Shown here in pieces: positions 5,153 to 34,222 of a DNA stretch of 64,000 bases. The stretch spans positions 19,734 to 83,733 of the forward strand of contig CAZCYB010000006.1 of the NCBI GenBank assembly GCA_964502805.1. The letters run 5' to 3'. Positions within the stretch are counted from its first letter, which is position 1, and every line of letters starts with the position of its first letter. The stretch is from an uncultured Desulfocurvus sp. (GTDB taxonomy: Bacteria; Desulfobacterota; Desulfovibrionia; Desulfovibrionales; Desulfovibrionaceae). The translations under genes and the position numbers were made by a program. The notes beneath the pieces were generated by a model. The model was not told where the DNA came from and searched no databases. It saw only the letters and a program-made list of their open reading frames with translations.

Positions 5153-6571
<1,419 letters not shown>

Positions 6572-17865: not shown

Positions 17866-17897
17866 AGGCGGCCGCCCGGGGTTCCGGGCGGCCGCCT
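17866..17897. terminator. Bidirectional terminator hairpin between ogt and the RTX gene
   Basis: AGGCGGCCGCCCGG-GGTT-CCGGGCGGCCGCCT. It is followed by TGTTTG on the plus strand and by CATTTTTCGG on the minus strand. Confidence 0.7.
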
Positions 17898-17926
17898 TGT
17901 TTGCGCTGGAGCCTGTTCCGTGGCGG

Positions 17927-20900
17927 CTAGGCCACGGTGTTGTGGTTGGCGTCCACCATGATGATGTCCGTGGCGGCCATGGTGCCGCCCACGCCGCCCG
18001 CCACCATGACGGCCGCGCCGCCGCCCATGTCGCCGTCGGCGTCGAACATGAGCTTGTTGTTGATGCTGTCGTGGTAGAAGCAGGCCGTGCTGATGTCCGC
18101 GGCGTTGTATGCGGCCTCGCTGGTGTAGAAGTAGCTCTGGACCATGGAGGTGTTGTTGAAGCCGAAGTTGCCGCCGTCGGTGGTGCAGTAGAAGGCGAAC
18201 TTGTCCGTTCCGGTGGTGAAGTCGGTGACGGTGTCGCCGAACTCGCTCTGGGTCTTGTAGATGAACAGGTCGTTGCCCGCGCCGCCGGTGAGCGAGTCTG
18301 CCCCGGCCCGGCCGAAGAGCTTGTCCGCGCCGCCCAGGCCCGTGATCTGGTTGTTCTCGGCGTTGCCGAAGAGGTCGTCGGAATAGGCGCTGCCGGTGAG
18401 GTGCTCGAAGCCGTCGATGGTGATGGTGCGGCCGCCCTCGTCGATGCCCACCTGCGGCGCTGTGATGGCCAGGTCCACGTTCACGTCCAGGTCGGAGAAC
18501 TCGAAGCTCAGGGTGTCGGTGCCGTCGCCGCCGAACATGGTGTCGTTGCCCATGCCGCAGTGGACAGTGTCGTTGCCCGCGTCGCCGTAGACGGTGTCGT
18601 TGCCGTCCCCGGCGTAGATGACGTCGTTGCCGTCGTCGCCGTGAATGGTGTCGTCGCCTCCGAAGCCCTCGATGACGTTGGCCCCGGCGTTGCCGCTGAG
18701 GGTGTCGCCGAAGCCCATGGTGCCCTTGATGTTCTCGATATTCGACAGGGTGTCCGTGCAGCCGTAGCCGTCGCTGGCCGTGCCGGCCAGCAGGTTCACC
18801 GTCACCCCGGCGCTGGCCGGGCCGTAGGTCACGGTGTCCGTGCCCGCGCCGCCGTCCAGCGTGTCGTTGCCGATGCGGCCCATGAGCAGGTCGTTGCCGC
18901 CCCCGCCGTTGATGGTGTCGTTGCCGCTGCCGCCGTGGATGATGTCGTCCTGGTCCGAGCCGGTAATGTTGAGTGTGCCCGTGACGTCGGCCCCGTTGAA
19001 GCTGAAGGTGCCGCTCATGGCGCTGGCGTTGATGGTCAGGGTCTGGCCCGTGGTGCACAGATCCTCGTCGGCTTCGACGTCCGCCGCGCCGCTGCCCTTG
19101 ACCAGGATGGTCTCCACGTTGACCACCCCGCTCCAGTCCGTGGTGGCCAGCACGCTGCCGCCGTTGGTCCAGTATTCCAGGGTGTCGCTGCCCGCGCCGC
19201 CGTCCACGGTGTCGGCGGAGGTGAGGCGGTTCGCGCCGTCGTTGGCCACATGGAAGGTGTCGTCGCCGTCCCCGCCGTAGAGGGCCTTGGTGCCGTCGTC
19301 GTCGGTGATGGTGTCGTTGCCCGCGCCGCCGTAGATGGTGTCGTTGCCCGCGCCGCCTTCGATGCCGTCGTCTCCGTCGTCGCCGTAGATGGTGTCGTTG
19401 CCCATCTGGCCATTGAGCCAGTCGTTGCCTGCGCCGCCGTAGATGGTGTCGTTGTCCTCGCCGCCGAAGATGTCGTCGACACCGTCCTCGCCCTTGAGCA
19501 GGTCCGCGCCGTTGTAGCCGTAGATGGTGTCGTCGCCCGCGCCGGCGAACACGGTGTCGCCGCTGCTGGTGCCCAGGCCCGCGTTGCCCGCCATGATCTG
19601 GTCGTTGCCCGCGCTGCCGGTGATGTACAGGTAGCCGTCGCCCAGGCCGCTGGCGTCCAGGCTCAGGTTCTGCCCGGCCTGCAGGCTCGGGGCGCTGACG
19701 GTGATGGTGGTGCCGGCCTGACCGTTGAAAATGGTGTTGTTGTTGAAGACGGCGTCCACGCTGGTGGTGGCGTTGTCGAACTGGATGTACTTGAAGCTGC
19801 GGACGCCGTCGTAGTTCTCGCTTCCGTTGCTGATGACGTGCAGGGTGTCGTCGCCCGCGCCGCCGTCGATGACGTCGGTGGAGTTCAGGTTCACGTCCAT
19901 GTAGATCTGGTCGTCGCCCTGGGTGCCGGTGATCTGCTCCGCGCCCTGGTCGCCGCCGCCGTGCACTGTCACGCCCGTGGTCCAATTCGACAGGTTTATG
20001 ATGTCCGAGTCCTGGCCGCCGTTGATGACTTCCATGCCGGAGAAGGTGCTGTTGATGTTCGTGCCGGTGACGGAGCCCGCGCCCTGGGCCATGCCGCCGG
20101 TGATGGTCAGGGCGGTGCCGACGCCGATGGCCGAGTAGTCCAGGGTGTCCGTGCCCGCGCCGCCGTCGGCGATGTCGTCGCCGGTGCCCGGGGCCAGCTT
20201 GTCGTTGCCCAGGCCGCCGTCGAGCACGTCGTTGCCCGTGCCGCCGGTGATGGTGTTGGCGCCGGAATCACCGGTGAGGGTGTCGTTGTAGTTCGAGCCC
20301 AGGATGTTCTCGAACCCGTCGTGCGCGGCGATGACGATGCCCTCGCCCGTGCCCCCGCCCACGGAGACGTTCTGCGAGGTGCTGGTGGCAAGGCTGAAGA
20401 CCGCGGCGCTGGTGGCGCTGGCGAAGGAGATGGTGTCCGTGCCCGCGTCGCCGTGCAGGGTGTCCGTGCCCCACTTGCCGTCGATGCTGTCGTTGCCCGC
20501 CCCGCCCCAGATCTCGTTGTTGCCCTGGTCGCCCTTGAGGGTGTCGTTGTAGGCGGAGCCGATGAGCTTCTCGAAGCCGTCCAGGGTGTCCAGGCCGCCG
20601 CCGCCGGTGTTCTGCTGCGACTTCTGCGTCAGGTCCACGGTGACGGCGCTGCTGGCCTGGGCGTAGGTGATGGTGTCGTCCGTGCCCGCGCCGCCGATGA
20701 GCACGTCCGTGCCGGTGACGGTGCCGTGCACCGTGAGCGTGCCTGCGGCGGCGCTGCCGTCGAAGTTGAAGTTGCCGGTGAGCGTGTGGGCGTCGATCTC
20801 CAGGCTGTTGCCGGAGGTGACCAAGCTGGCGGCGGCGTTGACGCTGACCTCGGAGCTGCCGAGCACGTTGATCTTCTCCACGTTCACCACGCCGTGCCAG

Positions 20901-23900
20901 TCGTCCAGGTCGTTGGAACTGGTCGCCACGTTCAGGGTGTCGTACCCGCCGCCGCCGTTGATGGTGTCCGTGGAGTAGAGGTACCCGGTGCCGCCGTCGT
21001 TGGTGGTGATGGTGTCGTTGCCATCCCCGGCGTTCACCGTGTCGTCGCCGTTGCCTATGATGATGGTGTCGGCCTTGCTCGTGCCCACGATGGCGTTGTT
21101 GGCCGCTGTGCCCGTGATCTGCACGGTGTCCGCGCCCTGGTCCGCGTTCCAGCCGCTGCCGAAGGTCAGGCCGCTCAGGTCGAGGTTGGCGGAGTCCATG
21201 ATAACGCTCAGGGTGGTGTCGCCCGCGCCGGTGGAGTCCACCTGCAGGCCCGTGAGCGCCAGGATCTGGGAGGCGTTGAAGGCCGCGGAGACGCTGTTGC
21301 TCGTGGCGTCGAGCTTCACCTTCTCGATGTTAGTGAAGGTGATGGCCTGGGACAGGTCGTTGGTGCGCAGGTCGGCGTTGACGTAGGTGACCTTGATGGT
21401 GTCCGTGCCGTCTCCGCCGTCGATGCTGGTGACAGTCTCCAGCTTGTTCTGGTTCAGCCACAGGGTGTCGTTGTACTGCGAGCCCTGGGAGGTCTCGAAG
21501 CCGTCCACCGTGTCCGTGTTGCCGTAGGTGTCGGTGATGGTGCCCGCGCTGACGTTGATGGTGATGCCGCAGCCACCGGTTTCGCCCGCGTAGGTAAGGG
21601 CGTCGGTGCCGAGCCCGCCGTTCAGCGTGTCGTTCCCGGCCCCGCCGGTGATGGTGTCGTTGCCGTTGCCGCCGGAGATGGTGTCGTTGCCGTCGCCGCC
21701 GCTAAGGGTGTCGTTGTCGTCGCCGCCGTCGAGGATGTCCGCCCCGGCGCCGCCGGTGAGGATGTCGTTGCCGGTGCCGCCGTCCATGCTGTCGTCCCCC
21801 GCCTCGCCGGAGAGGGTGTCGGCGTTGGCGCCGCCCAGGATGGTGTCGTTGCCCGTTCCGCCGGTGATCTGGTCCGCGCCAGCGCCGCCCTTGAGGGTGT
21901 CGGCCCCGGCGCCGCCGGTGATGTACAGGGCGTAGTTGCCCACGCCGGAGGCGTCGAAGGTGAGGCTGTGCCCGGCGGTGAGGGCCGAGCCCACGATATC
22001 CACGTGGCCGTTGTAGTCCGCGCCCTGGGCCACCATCAGGCTGGTGGGGATGAGGTTGGTGGTGGCGTCGCCCAGCACCACGCGCTCCACGTAGCTCACG
22101 TTGTCCAGGTCGTGGGTCTGCCAGTTGCGGTTGGCCTCCACCACGGTGCCGTTGTCCAGCCGGGCGTAGTCCTCCACCTGGGCCACCTGGGTGAAGTTCA
22201 GGGTGTCGAACCCGTCGCCGCCCGCGATGGTGTCGCCCTGGGCCTTGAGGGGCCCGTCGGCGTAGTAGGTGGTGCTGCGCAGGCCCTGGCCCATGAAGAT
22301 GCTGTCGTCGCCCGCCCCGGCGTTGATGGTGTCCGTGCCGAGCTCGGCGTTGATGATGTCGGCCCCGTCGCCGCCGTTCACGGTGTCGTTGCCGTCGCCG
22401 CCGTCGAGGACGTCGTTGCCCTTGCCGCCGTGCAGGGTGTCGTCGCCCGCGCCGCCGTTCAAGGCGTCGTTGTCCACCACGGAATCGTCGGCGTCGCTGC
22501 CCCAGAGGACGTCGTTGCCCGCGCCGCCGCTGATGATGTCGTCGCCAGCCTCGCCGAAGATGGTGTCGTTGTCCGCGCCGCCGTCGATGATGTCGTTTCC
22601 TTCGTCGCCCTGGATGCTGTCCTCGCCAGCGCCGCCCTCGATGAGGTCGTTGCCCTCGGCGCCGTAGATGAAGTCGTTGCCGCCGCCGCCGTAGATGGCG
22701 TTGTTCGAGTCGTTGCCGATGATGACGTCGCCGAATTCGGAGCCGGTGACGTTGACCACGGACGAGCTGATGGAGGTCACCTGCTCGTTGTCGTACGCGC
22801 TCTGCTGCTCCCACATGGTGTGGTTGGCCAGGGTCTCGTAGTAGGGGCCGTCATCGCGCGGGCCGGGGTTGGGGAAGGAACTGTCGCCGTCCGGGTTCAG
22901 CGTGACGTACATGCCCTGGCTGGCCGTGAGGAAAGACAGGGAGTTGTCCGTGGTGATGTTGTTGATGGTGTCGGTGATTGTGGTGATGATGTCGTTGGGG
23001 TCGAAGCCGAGGTCACCAGGCTCGTTCAACTGGTCCAGCGCGCCCTGGGACAAGACGACCCCGTAGATTACGACAGAAGAAACCGGACCGGTGATGGGGC
23101 TATTGGGGTTGACCGGGTTGCTCGACATATCACCAATGCGAATAATGTCGCCAATGCCCAGCTTGCTTACATCGGTAAGGAAGGACGGCTGCTGTCCCTG
23201 TGCGGCCTGCTGGGCGGCGAAGTCCGCCGCCGCCTTGGCGGCATCGGCCAGGGCCTGGGCCTGCTGCGCGGCAAAGGCCTCCGTCGCCGCCTTGGCCGCC
23301 GCCTCCGCCGCCAGCTTGGCCGCCGCCTCCAGCTTGGCCGCCGCCGCCGCCGCGGCCTTGGCCGCCGCCTCGGCTGCGGCCTTGGCCGCCGGGTCCGTGG
23401 CCTTGGCCGCCGCCGCAGCAGCAGCTGCTGCCGCCGCCTTGGCCGCCGCCGCCTCGGCCGCCTTGGCCGCCGCCTCGGCCGCCGCCTTGGCCGAGGTGTC
23501 CGCCGCAGCCTGGACCTTGGGGTCCACCCGGCCTGTCTGCTGGCCGGGGGCGGTGGAGATGACGTCCGTAGGCGCGCCCTGGGTCTGGATGTTCGCCGGG
23601 GTGAGCGCCTGGAAATACTTGAATTCCTGGGGGGTCATGATGAGCACGGGGCCCGCGCCGAACTGGTTCACCTCCACCTTGACGCCGGAGGTGGACAGCA
23701 CCTGGAACTGCCCGCCGCCCAGGGGCTGCACGATGACGGGCTTGCCGTCGAAGACCATGATCAGGTGGTTCTCGCTGCCCTGGCCCGGAGGCGGAACGGT
23801 GTGGCCGGTCTCGGTGCCGCGTATGCCGATGGTGGCAAGCGGGCTCTGCATCTTGAAGCTTTCGGGGTTCTGCTTGACGATCTCGCCGGTGACGGTGCGG

Positions 23901-24166
23901 AAGGTGCCCTGGGCCATCTTGAACAGGGCCTGGCCCGTGCCCTTGTCGGCGTTGTAGACGTACTGGTCCAGGCTGACCTTGGAGGCCTCGCCCACGTTCA
24001 GCACGGTCTTGTCCAGGAACTCGATGGACCCGGCGGAACCCTTGGTGGTGGAAATGGTGTCGCCCTTGAACACGGGGTTGCCCTGTTCAAGGTTGCGGGT
24101 CCCTTCCGGACCCATGGCGTTCATCTGCCCCTTGACGACCTTGGCGACGCCGATCTGCTGGGCCAT
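17927..24166 (-). CDS. Giant RTX / hemolysin-type Ca-binding repeat protein with FecR-like N-terminal domain (probable type I secretion substrate)
   Basis: 2079-aa ORF. The N-terminus (VAKVVKGQMNAMGPEGTRNLEQGNPVFKGDTISTTKGSAGSIEFLDKTVLNVGE...IGIRGTE) looks like a FecR domain, followed by an Ala/Lys-rich linker. Several dozen GGxGxD nonapeptide repeats then occur in blocks. The C-terminus is GGAGNDLFIY...DTVTDFTTGTDKFAF, a T1SS-target-like tail with no Cys-rich or signal peptide features. Confidence 0.9.
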   Translation of the reverse strand: MAQQIGVAKVVKGQMNAMGPEGTRNLEQGNPVFKGDTISTTKGSAGSIEFLDKTVLNVGEASKVSLDQYVYNADKGTGQALFKMAQGTFRTVTGEIVKQNPESFKMQSPLATIGIRGTETGHTVPPPGQGSENHLIMVFDGKPVIVQPLGGGQFQVLSTSGVKVEVNQFGAGPVLIMTPQEFKYFQALTPANIQTQGAPTDVISTAPGQQTGRVDPKVQAAADTSAKAAAEAAAKAAEAAAAKAAAAAAAAAAAKATDPAAKAAAEAAAKAAAAAAAKLEAAAKLAAEAAAKAATEAFAAQQAQALADAAKAAADFAAQQAAQGQQPSFLTDVSKLGIGDIIRIGDMSSNPVNPNSPITGPVSSVVIYGVVLSQGALDQLNEPGDLGFDPNDIITTITDTINNITTDNSLSFLTASQGMYVTLNPDGDSSFPNPGPRDDGPYYETLANHTMWEQQSAYDNEQVTSISSSVVNVTGSEFGDVIIGNDSNNAIYGGGGNDFIYGAEGNDLIEGGAGEDSIQGDEGNDIIDGGADNDTIFGEAGDDIISGGAGNDVLWGSDADDSVVDNDALNGGAGDDTLHGGKGNDVLDGGDGNDTVNGGDGADIINAELGTDTINAGAGDDSIFMGQGLRSTTYYADGPLKAQGDTIAGGDGFDTLNFTQVAQVEDYARLDNGTVVEANRNWQTHDLDNVSYVERVVLGDATTNLIPTSLMVAQGADYNGHVDIVGSALTAGHSLTFDASGVGNYALYITGGAGADTLKGGAGADQITGGTGNDTILGGANADTLSGEAGDDSMDGGTGNDILTGGAGADILDGGDDNDTLSGGDGNDTISGGNGNDTITGGAGNDTLNGGLGTDALTYAGETGGCGITINVSAGTITDTYGNTDTVDGFETSQGSQYNDTLWLNQNKLETVTSIDGGDGTDTIKVTYVNADLRTNDLSQAITFTNIEKVKLDATSNSVSAAFNASQILALTGLQVDSTGAGDTTLSVIMDSANLDLSGLTFGSGWNADQGADTVQITGTAANNAIVGTSKADTIIIGNGDDTVNAGDGNDTITTNDGGTGYLYSTDTINGGGGYDTLNVATSSNDLDDWHGVVNVEKINVLGSSEVSVNAAASLVTSGNSLEIDAHTLTGNFNFDGSAAAGTLTVHGTVTGTDVLIGGAGTDDTITYAQASSAVTVDLTQKSQQNTGGGGLDTLDGFEKLIGSAYNDTLKGDQGNNEIWGGAGNDSIDGKWGTDTLHGDAGTDTISFASATSAAVFSLATSTSQNVSVGGGTGEGIVIAAHDGFENILGSNYNDTLTGDSGANTITGGTGNDVLDGGLGNDKLAPGTGDDIADGGAGTDTLDYSAIGVGTALTITGGMAQGAGSVTGTNINSTFSGMEVINGGQDSDIINLSNWTTGVTVHGGGDQGAEQITGTQGDDQIYMDVNLNSTDVIDGGAGDDTLHVISNGSENYDGVRSFKYIQFDNATTSVDAVFNNNTIFNGQAGTTITVSAPSLQAGQNLSLDASGLGDGYLYITGSAGNDQIMAGNAGLGTSSGDTVFAGAGDDTIYGYNGADLLKGEDGVDDIFGGEDNDTIYGGAGNDWLNGQMGNDTIYGDDGDDGIEGGAGNDTIYGGAGNDTITDDDGTKALYGGDGDDTFHVANDGANRLTSADTVDGGAGSDTLEYWTNGGSVLATTDWSGVVNVETILVKGSGAADVEADEDLCTTGQTLTINASAMSGTFSFNGADVTGTLNITGSDQDDIIHGGSGNDTINGGGGNDLLMGRIGNDTLDGGAGTDTVTYGPASAGVTVNLLAGTASDGYGCTDTLSNIENIKGTMGFGDTLSGNAGANVIEGFGGDDTIHGDDGNDVIYAGDGNDTVYGDAGNDTVHCGMGNDTMFGGDGTDTLSFEFSDLDVNVDLAITAPQVGIDEGGRTITIDGFEHLTGSAYSDDLFGNAENNQITGLGGADKLFGRAGADSLTGGAGNDLFIYKTQSEFGDTVTDFTTGTDKFAFYCTTDGGNFGFNNTSMVQSYFYTSEAAYNAADISTACFYHDSINNKLMFDADGDMGGGAAVMVAGGVGGTMAATDIIMVDANHNTVA

Positions 24167-24375
24167 GGCGATACTCCTGGCACGGGTGCGCTTCCTGGGG
24201 GGCGGGGGTCTTCGGGCGCGGGGGAACGCCGGGGGGTGAAGACTCCTCCCCTATTGAACTACGCACTACCCCCTTTGCAAGGGGGCGTCAATGCGCCGGG
24301 GGTGAGGGTCCCTTGCCCCCAGTGAACCGCGTATGGCGCCCGGTGCGTGGGGCCGCCGGGGTGGGGGGGCGGAGG

Positions 24376-26537: not shown

Positions 26538-28607
26538 TTACAGCTCCACCTGGCTGCCCAGCTCCACCACGCGCCCCGGCGGGATGCCGAAGAAGGTGGT
26601 GGCGTTCCAGGCGTTGCGCGACATGAAGGCGAACAGCGCCTTGCGCCAGGAGGCCATCTTCGACGGCCCGCCGGTGAGCAGGGTCTCTCGGCCCAGGTAG
26701 AAGGTGGTGGCCTGGAGCTGGGCGTCCAGTCCGTGGGCCTTGGCCATCTCCAGTATCTCCGGCACGCTGGGGGTCTGCATGAAGCCGTAGCGGGCGATGA
26801 CCCGGAAGAAGCCGTGGCCCAGGGGCTTCACGGTCAGGCGCTCCGCCCTGGGCACGTAGGGCGTCTCCGCGCTCTGGATGGACAAGAGCAGCACCTGCTC
26901 GTGCAGGATCTTGTTGTGCTTGAAGTTGTGCAGCAGCGTGATGGGCGTTCCCGTGGGCGAGACGGACATGAACACGCCCGTGCCCGGCACGCGCACCGGC
27001 TTCTGCGAGGCCACCACGCTGTTCAGGAACAGCTCCGTGGGCAGGCCCAGCTTGGCGAACTGCACGCCCAGGGCCCTTTTGCCCTCGCGCCAGGTGGCCA
27101 TGGCGATCATGATCAGCCCGGCCACGGTGAGGGTGAACCAGCCGCCGTCGGCGATCTTGAGCAGGTTGGCCGAGAGGAAGGACAGGTCGAAGAGCAGGAA
27201 CAGGGCCACCAGGGGCAGGGCCTTCCAGGCGGACCAGCCCCAGAGCATGGTGGACACGAACAGGAAGAAGATGGAGGTGATGGTCATGTCGATGGTGACG
27301 GCGATGCCGTAGGCCGCGGCTAGGCCGCTGGAGCTCTTGAAGGCCAGCACCAGGCCCAGGCAGGCCACCATCATGGCCCGGTTCACCCCGGGCAGGTAGA
27401 TCTGGCCCTTGGTGTGGGCGCTGGTGTTCACGATGCGGATGCGCGGGCAGAAGCCCATCTGCACCGCCTGCTGCGTGAGCGAGAACACCCCCGAGATCAT
27501 GGCCTGGGAGGCGATGACCGTGGCGAAGGTGGCCAGGGCCACCATGGGGTAGAGCAGGTTCTCGGGCACCAGGCCGTAGAAGGGGTTGAAGGACTTTTCC
27601 GGGCTGGCCAGCAAGAGCGCCCCCTGGCCGAAGTAGTTGAGCAGCAGGGCGGGCAGCACCAGCACGCACCAGGAGAGGCGGATGGGCGCGCGGCCGAAGT
27701 GGCCCATGTCCGCGTACAGGGCCTCGCCGCCGGTGATGCACAGCACCACCGAGCCCAGCACCACCATGCCGTGCAGGCGGTTCTCGATGAAGAAGCGCAC
27801 CGCGTGCAGGGGGTTCACGGCGGCCAGGATCTCCGGGTTATCCAGAATGGCCGAGAGGCCAAGCCCCGCCAGGGTGGCGAACCAGAGGATCATCACCGGG
27901 CCGAAGACCTTGCCGATGCTGTCCGTGCCGTGCTTCTGCATCAGGAACAGGCCCACCAGCACCGCGCAGGTGCCGGGGATGATGAAGGGCGTGGCGGCGT
28001 CCGTGGCCACGCTCAGTCCCTCCATGGCCGAGAGCACGGAGATGGCCGGGGTGATGATGCCGTCGCCGTACAGCAGCGCCGCGCCGAAGGTGGCCAGGAA
28101 GACCACGATGGCGTACTTGGCGCGGCTTTCGGCCTGGACCTTGGCCTGCAGCAGGGCCAGCAGGGCGAACACGCCGCCCTCGCCCTTGTTGTCGGCCCGG
28201 AGCACGAAGACCACGTACTTCACGCTCACCACCACGATGAGCGACCAGAGGATGAGCGAGAGCACGCCCAGGATGTTGGCGGGCAGAAGCGCGATGGCGT
28301 GGGGGCCGTGGAAGCATTCCTTCACGGCGTAGAGCGGGCTGGTGCCGATGTCTCCGTAGACCACGCCCAGTGCGGCCAGGGCCAGGGCCAGGGTGCGGGG
28401 ATTGCCGTGGGGCGCGTGGCCGCCGCCCTCGTGGGCGGGCTGTGCGGGCTGGCCGGCCTGGCTGGGCTGGGCGGGCTGTGCGGGCGCGGGCGGGACCTCG
28501 GCCTGGGGCGCTCCACCGCCTTCCTCGGCCACGCGGGCGAACAGCCGCGACAGGCGCGGCGCCAGCAGGGCCAGGGGACGGAACACTGCCCGGGGGGGAA
28601 ACGGCAT
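26538..28607 (-). CDS. kup: KUP/HAK/KT-family potassium uptake protein (copy 1)
   Basis: Contains LGVVYGDIGTSPLYAVKECF plus about 12 TM segments and a cytoplasmic C-domain. The ATG at 28607 (MPFPPRAVF) is preceded by GGAGG. The longer track start at 28796 would run through the riboswitch. Confidence 0.93.
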   Translation of the reverse strand: MPFPPRAVFRPLALLAPRLSRLFARVAEEGGGAPQAEVPPAPAQPAQPSQAGQPAQPAHEGGGHAPHGNPRTLALALAALGVVYGDIGTSPLYAVKECFHGPHAIALLPANILGVLSLILWSLIVVVSVKYVVFVLRADNKGEGGVFALLALLQAKVQAESRAKYAIVVFLATFGAALLYGDGIITPAISVLSAMEGLSVATDAATPFIIPGTCAVLVGLFLMQKHGTDSIGKVFGPVMILWFATLAGLGLSAILDNPEILAAVNPLHAVRFFIENRLHGMVVLGSVVLCITGGEALYADMGHFGRAPIRLSWCVLVLPALLLNYFGQGALLLASPEKSFNPFYGLVPENLLYPMVALATFATVIASQAMISGVFSLTQQAVQMGFCPRIRIVNTSAHTKGQIYLPGVNRAMMVACLGLVLAFKSSSGLAAAYGIAVTIDMTITSIFFLFVSTMLWGWSAWKALPLVALFLLFDLSFLSANLLKIADGGWFTLTVAGLIMIAMATWREGKRALGVQFAKLGLPTELFLNSVVASQKPVRVPGTGVFMSVSPTGTPITLLHNFKHNKILHEQVLLLSIQSAETPYVPRAERLTVKPLGHGFFRVIARYGFMQTPSVPEILEMAKAHGLDAQLQATTFYLGRETLLTGGPSKMASWRKALFAFMSRNAWNATTFFGIPPGRVVELGSQVEL

Positions 28608-28821
28608 GGACGGGACCTCCGAAGCGGACGCGGGGGCTGCCCCGCGCTGCGGAGGTGGGCCCCTTTCGATGCCTGCGAGGTGAGCTGACGGGCTGGGACC
28701 GAAAGGTGTCCCGCGCCTTGCTTCGGCGCTGCGCCCCGGTGAGGAGTGGTTCCCCCGCTTCCGGCCACGGGCCTGGAATTCGGCAGGGCACTTCATACTT
28801 GGCCGGGCGAGAGGGTGTCAA
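28608..28821 (-). promoter_or_regulatory. c-di-AMP riboswitch (ydaO/kimA class) with promoter and SD-sequestering helix, leader of kup copy 1
   Basis: The minus strand has TTGACA-N18-TATGAA. It then reads GCCGAAUUCC...AGCGGGGGAACCAC...CCGGGGCGCAGCG...ACACCUUUCGGUCCCAGCCCGUCAGCUCACCUCGCAGGCAUCGAAAGGGG. This matches remembered ydaO-motif blocks (GCCGAAUCC, GGGGGA-CC, GGGG-G, CCCG-CAGCUAACCUCG-AGGC). The anti-SD ACCUCCG pairs with the SD CGGAGGU 8 nt before the AUG. Confidence 0.8.
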
Positions 28822-28905: not shown

Positions 28906-30876
28906 CTAGAGCTGCACCTGGCTGCCCAGCTCGACCACGCGCCCCGGCGGGATGCCGAAGAAGGTGGTGGCGTTCCAGGCGTTGCGCGACATGTAGGCGA
29001 AGAGCGTCTTGCGCCAGGCGCTCATGCGCGTGTCGCCGCCGGTCAGCAGGGTCTCGCGGCCCAGGTAGAAGGTGGTGGCCTCCATGGGCGCGCTCAGGCC
29101 GTGGTCCCTGGCCTTGAGCAGGATGTCCGGAACGCTGGGGGTCTGCATGAAGCCGTAGCGCGCCAGCACGCGGAAGAAGCCATGGCCCAGGGGCGTCACC
29201 TCCAGGCGCTCGGCCTCGGGCACGAAGGGCGTCTCCGCGCTCTGGATGGACAAGAGCAGCACCTGCTCGTGCAGCACCTTGTTGTGCTTGAAGTGGTGCA
29301 GGAGCGTGATGGGCGTGCCCGTGGGGGAAACGGACATGAACACGCCCGTGCCCGGGATGCGCAGCGGCGCCTGCTGGGACACCAGGCTGTCCAGGAACAG
29401 GTTGATGGGCAGGCCCAGCTGCGCGAACTGGCGGCCCAGGGCCTTCTTGCCGTCGCGCCAGGTCAGCATGGCCATCATGATGACCAGGGCCACGGTGATG
29501 GTGAACCAGCCGCCGTCGAAGAACTTGAGCAGGTTGGCGCCCAGGTAGGTCACGTCGAAGGCCAAAAACAGCGCGATGAGCGGGATGGTCTTCCAGTAGG
29601 GCCAGCGCCACAGGGTGTGCACCACGTAGAAGTAGATCACCGAGGTGATGCCCATGGTGGCGGTGACGGCGATGCCGTAGGCCCCGGCCAGGCCGCTGGA
29701 GCTCTTGAAGGCCAGTACCAGCCCCAGGCAGGCCACCATCATGGCGTTGTTCACCCCGGGCAGGTAGATCTGGCCCTTGGTCTCGGCGCTGGTGTTCACG
29801 ATGTGGATGCGCGGGCAGAAGCCCAGCTGCACGGCCTGCTGCGTCAGCGAATAGACCCCGGAGATCATGGCCTGGGAGGCGATGACCGTGGCCGCCGTGG
29901 ACAGGACCACCATGGGGTAGAGCAGGGCCCGGGGCACCAGGCCGTAGAAGGGGTTGAAGGCCAGCTCCGGGTGGTCGAGCAGCAGCGCCCCCTGCCCGAA
30001 GTAGTTGCACAAAAGCGCGGGCAGCACCATGGCGTACCACGATAGCCGGATGGGCACTGCGCCGAAGTGGCCCATGTCGGCGTAGAGGGCCTCGCCGCCG
30101 GTGATGCACAGCACCACCGAGCCCAGCACCACCAGGCCGTGCAGCCTGTTGGCCAGGAAGAAGTCCACGGCGTACGCCGGGTTCACGGCGGCCAGGATCT
30201 CCGGGCTCTGGGCCACCTCGGCCAGGCCCAGGGCGGCGATGACCGCGAACCAGACCACCATGAGCGGGCCGAAGACCTTGCCGATGCGCTCCGTGCCGTG
30301 CTTCTGCATGCGGAACAGCGCGATGAGGATGAGGCAGGTGCCGGGGATGATGAAGGGACGGGCCTTGTCCGTGGCCACGTCCAGGCCCTCCATGGCCGAG
30401 AGCACGGAGATGGCCGGGGTGATGATGCCGTCGCCGTAGAGCAGGGCCGCTCCGAACAGGGCCGCGGTGATGAGCAGGGCGTGGCCGGTCTTGCCCGTGC
30501 CGTCCACCGAGCCCTTGACCAGCGCCAGGAGCGCGAAGATGCCGCCCTCGCCCTTGTTGTGGGCGCGCATGATGAACATGACGTACTTGAGGCTGACCAC
30601 GATGAGCAGGGACCAGAAGATGAGCGAGAGCACGCCCATGACGTTGGCGGGCAGGAGCTCCACGGCGTGGGGGCCGTGGAAGCATTCCTTCACGGCGTAG
30701 AGGGGGCTGGTGCCGATGTCGCCGTAGACCACGCCCAGGGCGGCCAGGGCCAGGGCCATGGTGCGGCCGCCGTGGTGGCCGTGGCCTTCTCCGCCGTGGG
30801 GCGGGGAATCCTCGGGCAGGGCCAGGGCGGGTCGCGGCGCAATGAGGCCGCGCAGAAACCGCAAGGCGGCGGGCAT
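28906..30876 (-). CDS. kup: KUP/HAK/KT-family potassium uptake protein (copy 2)
   Basis: Carries the same signature, ALAALGVVYGDIGTSPLYAVKECFHGPHA. The ATG at 30876 (MPAALRFLRG) is preceded by GGAGG. The longer track start at 30921 lies inside the leader helix. Confidence 0.93.
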   Translation of the reverse strand: MPAALRFLRGLIAPRPALALPEDSPPHGGEGHGHHGGRTMALALAALGVVYGDIGTSPLYAVKECFHGPHAVELLPANVMGVLSLIFWSLLIVVSLKYVMFIMRAHNKGEGGIFALLALVKGSVDGTGKTGHALLITAALFGAALLYGDGIITPAISVLSAMEGLDVATDKARPFIIPGTCLILIALFRMQKHGTERIGKVFGPLMVVWFAVIAALGLAEVAQSPEILAAVNPAYAVDFFLANRLHGLVVLGSVVLCITGGEALYADMGHFGAVPIRLSWYAMVLPALLCNYFGQGALLLDHPELAFNPFYGLVPRALLYPMVVLSTAATVIASQAMISGVYSLTQQAVQLGFCPRIHIVNTSAETKGQIYLPGVNNAMMVACLGLVLAFKSSSGLAGAYGIAVTATMGITSVIYFYVVHTLWRWPYWKTIPLIALFLAFDVTYLGANLLKFFDGGWFTITVALVIMMAMLTWRDGKKALGRQFAQLGLPINLFLDSLVSQQAPLRIPGTGVFMSVSPTGTPITLLHHFKHNKVLHEQVLLLSIQSAETPFVPEAERLEVTPLGHGFFRVLARYGFMQTPSVPDILLKARDHGLSAPMEATTFYLGRETLLTGGDTRMSAWRKTLFAYMSRNAWNATTFFGIPPGRVVELGSQVQL

Positions 30877-31094
30877 GAAAATACCTCCGGTACGAGTGGG
30901 TGCGGGGGAGGCCCCGTCCAAACCGGAGGTCTTCCCCTTTCGACGCCTGCGAGGTTAGCTGACGGGCTCGGACCGAAAGGTGTCCTACGCGCTGATGCGC
31001 GATGCGCCCCAAGGGATGTGGGTCCCCCGCTCCCGGGAAACGTTCCCGGAATTCGGCAACGCGACGATTACGCCCGGAGCCGCGGGGCTGTCAA
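30877..31094 (-). promoter_or_regulatory. c-di-AMP riboswitch (ydaO/kimA class) with promoter and SD-sequestering helix, leader of kup copy 2
   Basis: The minus strand has TTGACA-N18-TAATCG. It then reads GUUGCCGAAUUCCGGGAACGUUUCCCGGGAGCGGGGGACCCACAUCCCUUGGGGCGCAUCGCGCAUCAGCGCGUAGGACACCUUUCGGUCCGAGCCCGUCAGCUAACCUCGCAGGCGUCGAAAGGGG. A perfect 9-bp helix, ACCUCCGGU/ACCGGAGGU, covers the SD. Confidence 0.85.
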
Positions 31095-31160
31095 GCGGTG
31101 GACGAGGTTGCCAAGGCGGGCGCGGGCGGGTACCCTGGCGCAAATGGACGGCGCGGGGGC

Positions 31161-31262: not shown

Positions 31263-31451
31263 ATGAACCTGTTGGAGATCCTCCTCATTGTCATCATCGG
31301 TTTGGTATTGTTCAACTCGGGCAAGCTGCCGCAGGTGGGCGGCGGCATCGGAAAGGCCATCAGCAACTTCAAGCGCAGCCTGAACGAGCCCGAGGAGATT
31401 GACGTCACGGAGAAGAAAAAGGACCCGGGCGACACGCCGCCGAAGTCCTGA
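31263..31451 (+). CDS. tatA: TatA/TatE-family small membrane protein
   Basis: 62 aa: MNLLEILLIVIIGLVLFNSGKLPQVGGGIGKAISNFKRSLNE... This is a TM helix followed by an F-x-x-G-KLP hinge and an amphipathic helix, typical of TatA. Confidence 0.7.
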   Translation: MNLLEILLIVIIGLVLFNSGKLPQVGGGIGKAISNFKRSLNEPEEIDVTEKKKDPGDTPPKS

Positions 31452-31505: not shown

Positions 31506-32372
31506 ATGTTCGCCATAATCGGCCTTGTCGTTGTCATGGGCGCGGTCATCGGCGGGTATCTGCTCGAGGGCGGAAACCTGCACGTGCTCTGGCAGCCCGT
31601 CGAGCTTCTGATCATCCTGGGCTCCGGCATCGGTTCGCTGCTGGTGGGCTCGCCCATGAAGGTCAACGTCACCATCGGCAAGAACCTCATGCAGGTGTTC
31701 ACCGGCAAGCCCAAGAGCAAGAGCGACTACCTGGACATCCTGCTGGTGCTCTTCGACCTCTTGTCCCTGGCCCGGCGCGAGGGCGTCATCGCCCTGGAAG
31801 CCCACGTGAACAAGCCCGCGGACAGCACCATGTTCACCAACCGGCCCACGGTGCTGAAGAACCACGCCGTGCTCGACTTCATCTGCGACAACTTTAAGAC
31901 CTACACCGCCGCCAGCATGGAGCCCCACGAGTTCGAGGCCCTCATGGACATCGACATCGAGGCCCACCACGAGGACGCCCACCAGGCCCCCACCAACCTG
32001 AACCGCATGGCCGACGCCTTCCCGGCCCTGGGCATCGTGGCCGCGGTCATGGGCGTCGTGCTCACCATGGGCAAGCTCTCCGAGCCGCCCGAGGTGCTGG
32101 GCAAGAGCATCGGCGCGGCGCTGGTGGGCACCTTCCTGGGCGTGCTCCTGTCCTACGGCGTCGCCGGTCCCCTGGCCGCCATCATGGACGCCATGGTCAA
32201 GGAGACCACCAGCCAGCTCAACGTGGTCAAGGCCGCCATGAACGCCTTCGCCATGGGCTGGCCCCCGGCCATGGCCCTGGAGAGCGCGCGCCGCGCCATC
32301 CCGGCCCACGACCGCCCCGGCTTCGACGAGCTGGAGGAACTGCTGCGCCAGAGCAAGAAGGGCGGCGCCTAG
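31506..32372 (+). CDS. motA: Flagellar stator protein MotA
   Basis: 288 aa beginning MFAIIGLVVVMGAVIGGYLLEGGNLHVLWQPVELLIILG, with four TM segments and a large cytoplasmic loop. Confidence 0.93.
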   Translation: MFAIIGLVVVMGAVIGGYLLEGGNLHVLWQPVELLIILGSGIGSLLVGSPMKVNVTIGKNLMQVFTGKPKSKSDYLDILLVLFDLLSLARREGVIALEAHVNKPADSTMFTNRPTVLKNHAVLDFICDNFKTYTAASMEPHEFEALMDIDIEAHHEDAHQAPTNLNRMADAFPALGIVAAVMGVVLTMGKLSEPPEVLGKSIGAALVGTFLGVLLSYGVAGPLAAIMDAMVKETTSQLNVVKAAMNAFAMGWPPAMALESARRAIPAHDRPGFDELEELLRQSKKGGA

Positions 32373-32397: not shown

Positions 32398-33444
32398 GTG
32401 GCTGAGAACAAGTCCATCATCATCAAGAAGGTCAAGAAGGGCCACGCGGGCGCGCACGGCGGCGCCTGGAAGGTGGCCTACGCCGACTTCATGACCGCCA
32501 TGATGGCCTTCTTCCTGCTCATGTGGCTCCTGTCCATGGTGGTGCCCGAGAAGCGCGCCGGCGTGGAGCAGTACTTCCGCGAATTCAGCCTCTTCGACAA
32601 GCAGTCCACCATGGACATCCGCCAGGGCGGGGCCATGATCCCGGACAAGGACAAGCCCCCCGTGCCCCAGCGCGACGAGCTCACCGAGCCCGACGATCGC
32701 GGCGTGCCCGCCGTGCAGCCCGTGGAGATCCAGAGGAAGCTCCGCCAGGCCGTGGACATCAACCTGCCCGAGCTCAAGGACCAGGTGGTGGTGGAGGCCA
32801 ACGAGGCCGGGGTGCGCATCCAGCTCTTGTACGACGAGAAGGACCCCATGTTCGCCAAGGGCAGCCCGGAGCTCACCGCCACCGGCAAGCGCGCCCTCAA
32901 GCTCGTGGCCGACCAGATCAACCCCCTGCCCAACAAGATCGCCGTGGAGGGCCATACCGACGCCGTGAACTACTCCGGCGGCAAGTACACCAACTGGGAG
33001 CTCTCCACCGCCCGGGCCAGCGCCGCCCGCGTGGCCCTGGAGCTCTCCGGCTTTCCGCAGGAGCGCCTGGCCCGCGTGGCTGGCTACGCCTCCACCCAGC
33101 CCATGTTTCCGGACAACCCCGTGGACCCGCGCAACCGGCGCATCAGCATCCTGGTCATGAACTACGTGAAGCCCGAGGGCGGCGAGGGCCTGCAGGAGCG
33201 CCTGGGGAGCAAGCCCAAAAAGCAGGAGCCCTCCCTGGCCGAGGAACTCAACGCCACCATCGAGAAGATGCTTTCCATCGAGGCCCGGCCAGAGGTGACC
33301 AAGGAAGTGGAGGCCCGCCGCGCCGCCGAAAAGGCCGTGGCCGCCAAGGCCGAGGCCGAGCGCAGGGCCGCCGAGAAGGCCGCCGCCGACGCCAAGGCCA
33401 AGGCCGAGGCGGACAGGAAGGCCAAGGCCGCGGCCAAACAGTAG
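32398..33444 (+). CDS. motB: Flagellar stator protein MotB (OmpA-like C-terminus, Ala/Lys-rich tail)
   Basis: GTG start 9 nt after AAGGAG. Has the plug/TM region WKVAYADFMTAMMAFFLLMWLL and the OmpA-like VEGHTD...NWELSTARA...DPRNRRISILV. Confidence 0.9.
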   Translation: MAENKSIIIKKVKKGHAGAHGGAWKVAYADFMTAMMAFFLLMWLLSMVVPEKRAGVEQYFREFSLFDKQSTMDIRQGGAMIPDKDKPPVPQRDELTEPDDRGVPAVQPVEIQRKLRQAVDINLPELKDQVVVEANEAGVRIQLLYDEKDPMFAKGSPELTATGKRALKLVADQINPLPNKIAVEGHTDAVNYSGGKYTNWELSTARASAARVALELSGFPQERLARVAGYASTQPMFPDNPVDPRNRRISILVMNYVKPEGGEGLQERLGSKPKKQEPSLAEELNATIEKMLSIEARPEVTKEVEARRAAEKAVAAKAEAERRAAEKAAADAKAKAEADRKAKAAAKQ

Positions 33445-33454
33445 GGGGGCCCTG

Positions 33455-34222
33455 ATGACCGCCGAAACCGCCCCGTTCAGGAATGTGGCCGCGCCGGACC
33501 TCTCGCCCGGCGCGCGCGTCTTTGTCGTGGCCCTCAAGGACCCGCTGCGCGAACGCATCGACGTGCGCCAGAGCACCGTGCTGCACCAGGAGGGCGACGT
33601 GCTCTTCCTGGCCCAGACCGACCCGCCCCTGGAGCCGGAGCACGCCGGGCTGAGCCTGGAAGTGGCCGCCCTGGCCCCGGACGACGGCGGCGAACTCGGC
33701 CCCGTGGGCTACGCCGCGCGGCTGCTCAACGTCACCGACTCCTTCCAGATCGGCGAGGCCGACGCCGTGCCCGCCCTGGCCGTAACCGCGCCCGCGCCCG
33801 GCGAGTTCTACGAGACCAGCCTGCGCATGCACTACCGCGTCGCCGTGGACGAGAGCATGAACGTGTTCGTGCGGCTGGAAGGCCTGCCGGACATCGACGA
33901 GGCCGAACTGCTCGACTTCTCCGCCGGTGGCGCGCGCGTGCGCCTGGACCTCTCCGCCAACCCCGGCCTGCGCATCCCCCTGGGACAGCGCCTGCCCGTC
34001 AAACTCCTGTTCATCGGCTCCGGCTACGCAGACGCCATCGGCGTGGTGCGCAGCGCCACCAGCGGGACCATCGCCGCCGAGGACGGAACCACCCGCCCCG
34101 CCCTCGTCCTGGGCCTGTGCTTCACCAACATGGAGATCCGGGACATCCGCTACCTCGAGCGCATGGTCGCCCGCACCGTGTCCTCCTGCCGCCAGCGCGA
34201 ACGCGAGGCCCAGTACCTGTAA
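33455..34222 (+). CDS. YcgR-like PilZ-domain c-di-GMP receptor (flagellar brake candidate)
   Basis: 255 aa. PilZ signatures are RxxxR (LRMHYRV) and DxSxxG (LDFSAGGARV) about 30 residues later. It starts 10 nt after the motB stop. Confidence 0.8.
   Translation: MTAETAPFRNVAAPDLSPGARVFVVALKDPLRERIDVRQSTVLHQEGDVLFLAQTDPPLEPEHAGLSLEVAALAPDDGGELGPVGYAARLLNVTDSFQIGEADAVPALAVTAPAPGEFYETSLRMHYRVAVDESMNVFVRLEGLPDIDEAELLDFSAGGARVRLDLSANPGLRIPLGQRLPVKLLFIGSGYADAIGVVRSATSGTIAAEDGTTRPALVLGLCFTNMEIRDIRYLERMVARTVSSCRQREREAQYL

Follow-up and report, generated by a model that had tools for sequence, protein, structure and literature searches.

The question raised by this locus is what the leader of the first of two tandem kup genes does: whether it senses c-di-AMP, and how the signal might be passed on to the synthesis of the K+ transporter. 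We propose that positions 31094-30874 on the minus strand of the window (the whole stretch of DNA that was analysed, 64,000 nucleotides long) comprise the kup copy 2 promoter and the leader that follows it, and that this leader carries a functional-looking c-di-AMP riboswitch, which probably acts as a translational OFF switch. The motifs quoted in the original prediction are all found on the minus strand, where the elements follow one another in the order TTGACA, TAATCG, aptamer, anti-SD, inner hairpin, SD strand, UAUUUUC and AUG. The gene itself is defined by two features:

28906-30876, minus strand: coding sequence of kup copy 2, 656 amino acids, K_trans and K_trans_C
30874-30876, minus strand: AUG of kup copy 2, 7 nt (UAUUUUC, 30883-30877) past GGAGG; this start agrees with the 656-residue database protein P0001

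The product shows 100% identity over equal length to P0001, which carries the Pfam families K_trans and K_trans_C, and its best named relatives are Kup of Humidesulfovibrio and of other Desulfovibrionaceae. An N-terminal extension of about 38 residues (MPAALRFLRGLIAPRP...HGGEGHGHHGG; window 30876-30760, minus strand) precedes the conserved LALAALGVVYGD core. Upstream lie the divergent genes tatA (31263-31451, plus strand), motA (31506-32372), motB (32398-33444) and a PilZ-like gene (33455-34222), in an order that is kept in the closest relatives. Downstream of kup copy 2 come another promoter, another aptamer and kup copy 1, giving two tandem riboswitch-kup units; the 98-kb contig that encodes P0001 also encodes a 689-residue, 76%-identical protein. 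Elsewhere in the window we noted a full-length 6S RNA (RF00013; 2495-2677, minus strand, 103.8 bits) and, from the mechanical list of open reading frames, very long reading frames on both strands of 17897-24325 (2142 residues on the plus and 2079 on the minus strand).

The aptamer and its helices were located as follows:

30929-31068, minus strand: c-di-AMP riboswitch aptamer (RF00379), Rfam cmscan 89.9 bits, gathering score 38, E = 1e-19
31058-31055 with 30947-30944, minus strand: P1, UGCC paired with GGCG
31030-31025 with 30954-30949, minus strand: long-range helix, GCGGGG paired with CCUCGC
30974-30980, minus strand: 5' strand of the pseudoknot, CCUUUCG, in the loop of the hairpin 30985-30970 and complementary to the 3' tail
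30936-30942, minus strand: 3' strand (tail) of the pseudoknot, CGAAAGG, followed by a purine linker, GGAAG (30935-30931)

The proposal of a c-di-AMP riboswitch in this leader is strongly borne out by the covariance-model search (89.9 versus 38 bits), the match covering the entire model (1-134 of 134) with zero non-canonical pairs flagged, and copy 2 is indeed closer to the motif than copy 1 (89.9 versus 68.6 bits). A further membership feature is a place 5' of a gene that serves K+ transport, osmolyte transport or cell-wall metabolism, and copy 2 lies directly before the gene for the 656-residue Kup. All the sequence-testable defining features of RF00379 are present in copy 2. We compared it with its counterparts in eleven related loci, which were retrieved through exact-protein look-up of homologues; together, 17 intact Desulfovibrionaceae leaders, copy 1 included, were analysed. 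The RNAalifold consensus of the 17 aptamers recovered P1, P2, the GCGGGG:CCUCGC long-range helix and both hairpins of the 3' half. The relatives keep 34 predicted pairs, of which 8 carry compensatory double changes, and the aptamer is clearly under purifying selection. The pseudoknot, which was absent from the original prediction, is equally well kept, with 99.2% of cells paired over the 17 sequences and one column that changes from U-A to C-G in four of them. In this class the pseudoknot joins the loop of a hairpin to the 3' tail that follows P1, and it is the most ligand-sensitive element of the Thermoanaerobacter riboswitch (PMC11963983). Here the tail ends 5 nt upstream of the anti-SD, and it is most likely the link between ligand binding and the expression platform.

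The promoter had been described as TTGACA-N18-TAATCG, and this sequence is present:

31089-31094, minus strand: -35 hexamer TTGACA, identical in all riboswitch leaders of the alignment (15 of 15), its distance from P1 fixed and its flanks variable
31065-31070, minus strand: -10-like hexamer TAATCG, after an 18-nt spacer, of which only TA is invariant (15 of 15 leaders)

A scan for the sigma-70 consensus flagged nothing at the kup copy 2 promoter, which we attribute to a -10 element that lacks the final T. The constancy of TTGACA and of the TA of the -10 in all 15 leaders of the promoter alignment nevertheless speaks for a genuine promoter whose -10 element is weak, from which we infer a transcription start at about 31057-31060, a few nt from P1. 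The conserved TTGGCAAC upstream of the -35 was considered as a sigma-54 site and rejected, as no GC element stands at the distance required; the -35 (TTGCCA) of a divergent tatA promoter is the better reading. This likely promoter (window 31108-31136, plus strand) would consist of TTGCCA at 31108-31113, 17 nt and TACCCT at 31131-31136, and the TTGGCAA block and a TAnnnT are kept in those leaders of relatives that are adjacent to tatA.

Between the pseudoknot and the start codon, the leader contains a hairpin that can hide the Shine-Dalgarno sequence:

30922-30930, minus strand: anti-SD strand ACCUCCGGU; an anti-SD is found in 17 of 17 intact leaders
30903-30916, minus strand: inner hairpin CGGGG-CCUC-CCCCG, within the sequestering helix
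30883-30891, minus strand: SD strand ACCGGAGGU, with GGAGG at 30888-30884; its partner is 30930-30922

The perfect 9-bp helix ACCUCCGGU/ACCGGAGGU that had been proposed to mask the GGAGG 7 nt before the AUG is correct in pairing, coordinates and spacing, and the GGGG/CCCC hairpin that it was said to enclose is present, as CGGGG/CCCCG. The 9-mer has just these two occurrences on either strand of the 64-kb window, where 0.48 would be expected by chance. In the relatives, a sequestering helix of 7-11 bp is found in 17 of 17 Desulfovibrionaceae leaders. Its columns contain 85% paired cells compared with 30-44% in registers displaced by 1-3 columns, counts that were made on an alignment anchored on both arms, where the anchoring favours the structure and the slid-register control offsets this in part. 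We used this arm-anchored alignment because MAFFT of the whole platform set copy 1 out of register. Twelve cells of the helix are changed on both sides, a number reached by none of 500 shuffles, and three covarying pairs were seen at the inner end of the helix (UAC/GUA, CAU/AUG and UUCA/UGAA). In the outer 7 bp there is hardly any variation, as is expected of a Shine-Dalgarno sequence and its complement. The inner G-run/C-run hairpin can form in all the relatives and is kept by sequence, not by covariation. One platform design is common to all 17 intact leaders: the pseudoknot tail CGAA(A)GGG(G) is joined by an invariably purine-rich linker of 3-5 nt to the anti-SD, (A)CCUCCG(G...), behind which come an inner hairpin made of a G-run and a C-run, then (...C)CGGAGG(U) and, after a further 5-9 nt, the AUG.

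Copy 1 is built to the same design:

28656-28795, minus strand: c-di-AMP aptamer of copy 1, cmscan 68.6 bits, with its own TTGACA at 28821-28816
28605-28668, minus strand: expression platform of copy 1, with tail CGAAAGG (28668-28662) and anti-SD ACCUCCG (28656-28650)
same platform, minus strand: inner hairpin 28645-28630, CGGAGGU 28621-28615 and AUG 28607-28605
26538-28607, minus strand: coding sequence of kup copy 1, 689 amino acids

It had been suggested that the platforms of the two copies have diverged while the aptamer core is conserved. This holds mildly in terms of identity (62% for the platform, 73% for the aptamer), but the platform design is identical in both copies. In copy 1 the sequestering helix is 7 bp long (ACCUCCG/CGGAGGU), the inner hairpin is longer than in copy 2 and the spacer is rich in C where that of copy 2 is rich in U; its aptamer scores 21 bits lower and departs from the model at a few conserved positions. 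That the two copies might differ in ligand threshold is speculation from these sequence differences.

The distribution of the hairpin follows that of the aptamer. In the related loci RF00379 aptamers lie 5' of kup, and in four of these loci there is also one 5' of an AA_permease_2 gene, which sits between tatA and kup and gives the relatives a third riboswitch unit. We take AA_permease_2 to be the Pfam family of B. subtilis KimA/YdaO and refer to these genes as KimA-like. Two kup leaders of the same clade that lie in an amt-glnK context (loci L090 and L092) contained neither aptamer nor anti-SD hairpin, and at locus L087 (5682-5822) a decayed aptamer of 54.5 bits goes with loss of the anti-SD. 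Because the module tracks the presence and the decay of the aptamer in this way, we regard the SD-masking helix as a real, selected feature of the riboswitch. In the closest relatives, the second kup is preceded by just 105-120 nt without an aptamer (L082 5490-5594, L083 5508-5627), where the window keeps copy 1, and locus L084 has a platform-like sequence at about 5640-5738 without an Rfam match.

A protein-guided scan of genome contigs gave 80 remoter Kup loci, all in other phyla (50-57% identity), and among them an aptamer lay 5' of kup only in two Acidobacteria (L067 and L075), with one more on the opposite strand at L006; a DNA-pattern scan of metagenomes returned a single locus. In both Acidobacteria (L067 3783-4000, L075 3812-4000) the pseudoknot tail before kup contains GGAGG, as does the tail in L006 (3558-3758, minus strand), a Deltaproteobacteria MAG in which the aptamer faces away from kup. 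The partner of the GGAGG-bearing tail is the loop of the hairpin, as in the pairing of UUGGAGGU with ACCUUCAA, a layout that places the Shine-Dalgarno sequence directly in the pseudoknot.

The four AA_permease_2 leaders (L084 248-343, L086 1069-1161, L087 1101-1205 and L088 1072-1161) have a further peculiarity. There, the riboswitch-controlled SD and AUG open a 29-34-residue uORF (MPAV...AALRP...), whose stop overlaps or abuts the Shine-Dalgarno sequence or start of the transporter gene, as in CGC-TAG-GGAGG...ATG or an overlapping GTGA, which suggests translational coupling between uORF and transporter. The first codons of kup copy 2, AUG CCC GCC, and the platform that precedes them are nearly identical to those of these uORFs. 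Since the locus has no permease gene between tatA and kup, the kup copy 2 leader may derive, by inheritance, from a lost permease unit.

What, then, would the riboswitch do? Most likely it makes the translation of kup subject to repression by c-di-AMP. Of the c-di-AMP riboswitches, just one has been tested for control at the level of translation, and it turns expression off when ligand binds, by way of its pseudoknot (PMC11963983). This precedent from Thermoanaerobacter, the Acidobacteria kup leaders with the Shine-Dalgarno sequence in the pseudoknot and the inhibitory effects of c-di-AMP on K+ importers lead us to the OFF direction. To our knowledge, every effect of c-di-AMP on K+ importers is inhibitory (cf. 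PMC6488665). We hypothesize that at high c-di-AMP, in K+-replete cells, two ligand molecules would lock the aptamer and pseudoknot, and that this would withdraw the SD-like tail with its many purines, along with further G-rich strands of the aptamer, from the single-stranded pool. If free, these strands could serve as competitors for the anti-SD or as a landing site for the 30S subunit. With them locked away, the Shine-Dalgarno sequence would stay buried in the hairpin and Kup synthesis would be repressed at translation initiation, while at low c-di-AMP the aptamer would be loose, opening of the SD cheaper and kup translated.

This scheme is at its weakest where ligand binding has to be passed on to the hairpin. 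In secondary-structure models, forcing the SD open costs 5-23 kcal/mol, and the SD helix belongs to the minimum-free-energy structure of the whole leader whether the aptamer is free to compete or not. The ensemble mean of the opening energy is 10.2 kcal/mol with a free aptamer and 11.4 kcal/mol with aptamer and tail blocked. Opening is costlier with the aptamer blocked in 13 of the 17 leaders, by +1.2 kcal/mol on average and +2.4 for copy 2, a difference that is small and of mixed sign, comes from mutually related leaders and is calculated with a model that ignores tertiary structure. The direction of this modelled shift fits an OFF switch.

Folding models of the 17 leaders gave no anti-sequestor that is both strong and conserved. 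The weak candidates are the tail GGGG with CCUC and the aptamer GCGGGGG with the platform CCCCCGC. Three links could be envisaged: the tail GGGG may pair with the CCUC of the anti-SD when it is outside the pseudoknot, the SD-like purine tail may be a ribosome standby site that is hidden by the pseudoknot, or the sequestering helix may stack on the folded aptamer across the 3-5-nt linker. We also considered a relay, in which pairing of the aptamer GCGGGGG with the platform CCCCCGC frees the G-run of the platform for the anti-SD. The pairings of this relay do occur in prefix folds, but its second step, of about 4 bp, loses to the 9-bp helix and we rejected it. Pairing of the P1 3' strand (GGCGU) with AUGCC was likewise set aside as evidence: it is compatible with the sequences but tells us little, since each of the two strands has its own, unrelated reason to be invariant.

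The hairpin could also act on transcription. We think it unlikely, though worth weighing, that it mainly or additionally stops transcription, as an intrinsic terminator made of the 9-bp GC-rich stem and UAUUUUC or through Rho after a block of translation, with c-di-AMP lowering kup mRNA. The characterised Bacillus members (kimA, kdp) work in this way (PMC6488665), UAUUUUC (30883-30877) directly abuts the copy 2 stem, and a run of 5-6 U follows the stem in each of the four KimA-like leaders and in one more kup leader. However, a terminator scan of the copy 2 leader was negative, and intrinsic terminators do not usually have as much as the 31 nt that this stem encloses. Furthermore, the U-tract is present in 6 of the 17 leaders and missing from the other 11, copy 1 (UCCCGUCC) among them; as these 11 retain the SD pairing, it is SD masking that emerges as the conserved feature. 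Termination could contribute in the leaders that do have a U run.

The same thermodynamic models, in which the helix is closed in both states and has no conserved competitor, would also suit a constitutive translational damper that is blind to the ligand, beside an aptamer that acts by another route or no longer regulates. This we consider very unlikely, as the hairpin is confined to intact aptamers, where its distance from the pseudoknot tail is fixed at 3-5 nt, and as the aptamer is clearly under purifying selection with compensatory changes. An ON switch seems to us more improbable still. When the ligand-free state is modelled, the AUG and the pyrimidine-rich spacer can be bound by the 3' strand of P1 and by the G-rich tail, which suggests a logic opposite to OFF, since such pairing would shut the ribosome-binding site further. 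Without ligand, GGCGU and the G-rich tail would pair with AUGCC and the U-rich spacer and so extend the sequestration over the whole ribosome-binding site; ligand would recruit GGCGU to P1 and the tail to the pseudoknot, so that the start codon becomes partly free. The isolated platform does fold in this manner in copy 2 and most relatives, and an engineered ON c-di-AMP riboswitch relies on the same idea of strand displacement (PMC11963983). Yet the core 9-bp SD helix would still be closed in the ligand-bound state, the pairing with the spacer is not conserved, with 7 of 17 spacers not pyrimidine-rich, and the opening energy of the ribosome-binding site is higher with the aptamer blocked in 12 of 17 leaders. 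Inhibition as the effect of c-di-AMP on the K+ importers for which it is known is also contrary to an ON switch. We therefore favour translational repression by c-di-AMP, and compare it below with systems already described.

A c-di-AMP riboswitch upstream of kup had been predicted earlier (PMC6488665), and the aptamer is a plain member of RF00379, detectable by standard Rfam-based annotation, and not a new kind of element. Nor do we rank the separate anti-SD hairpin as a new kind, because platforms vary widely within riboswitch classes. The leader shares its aptamer family, including the long-range helix and pseudoknot, with the ydaO/kimA motif (RF00379) of B. subtilis kimA and B. thuringiensis kdpFABC, which there, too, is part of the leader of a gene for K+ uptake, and OFF is the expected logic in both (PMC6488665). 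In the Bacillus members an intrinsic terminator is placed well upstream of the start, whereas the kup leader has a hairpin that pairs with the Shine-Dalgarno sequence and a U-tract that is not conserved among relatives. The host also differs, being a Gram-negative, Humidesulfovibrio-like sulfate reducer. As read from its sequence, the leader would place K+ uptake in this type of organism under c-di-AMP control and extend the Firmicutes paradigm to the Desulfovibrionaceae. In their order of aptamer, anti-SD and SD, and in having a conserved sequestering helix, the leaders resemble platforms of the E. coli thiM TPP type. In thiM-type platforms the anti-sequestor is plain to see, since without ligand a strand of the aptamer takes up the anti-SD; none of comparable strength was found here.

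A further close parallel is riboCdA of Thermoanaerobacter pseudethanolicus, a translational OFF switch (PMC11963983), with which the kup leader shares the aptamer class, the loop-to-tail pseudoknot and the proposed action on translation initiation. In riboCdA the Shine-Dalgarno sequence lies inside the 3' strand of the pseudoknot and is hidden directly, and the Acidobacteria kup leaders L067 and L075 are alike in this. In the kup leader, by contrast, the tail CGAAAGG is SD-like and is not the Shine-Dalgarno sequence; the real one lies about 45 nt downstream, under a separate anti-SD. It is conceivable, though we would call it distinctly unlikely, that the Desulfovibrionaceae have a platform of their own, in which the pseudoknot hides an SD-like purine tail (a standby site or a competitor for the anti-SD) and not the Shine-Dalgarno sequence itself, or, with less likelihood, which works as an ON switch; if true, either version would be a mode of coupling so far undescribed for c-di-AMP riboswitches. 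Set beside the terminators of Bacillus and the SD-bearing pseudoknot of riboCdA, the conserved, covarying anti-SD hairpin offers a compact natural test case for the ways in which such an aptamer could drive translation and not termination.
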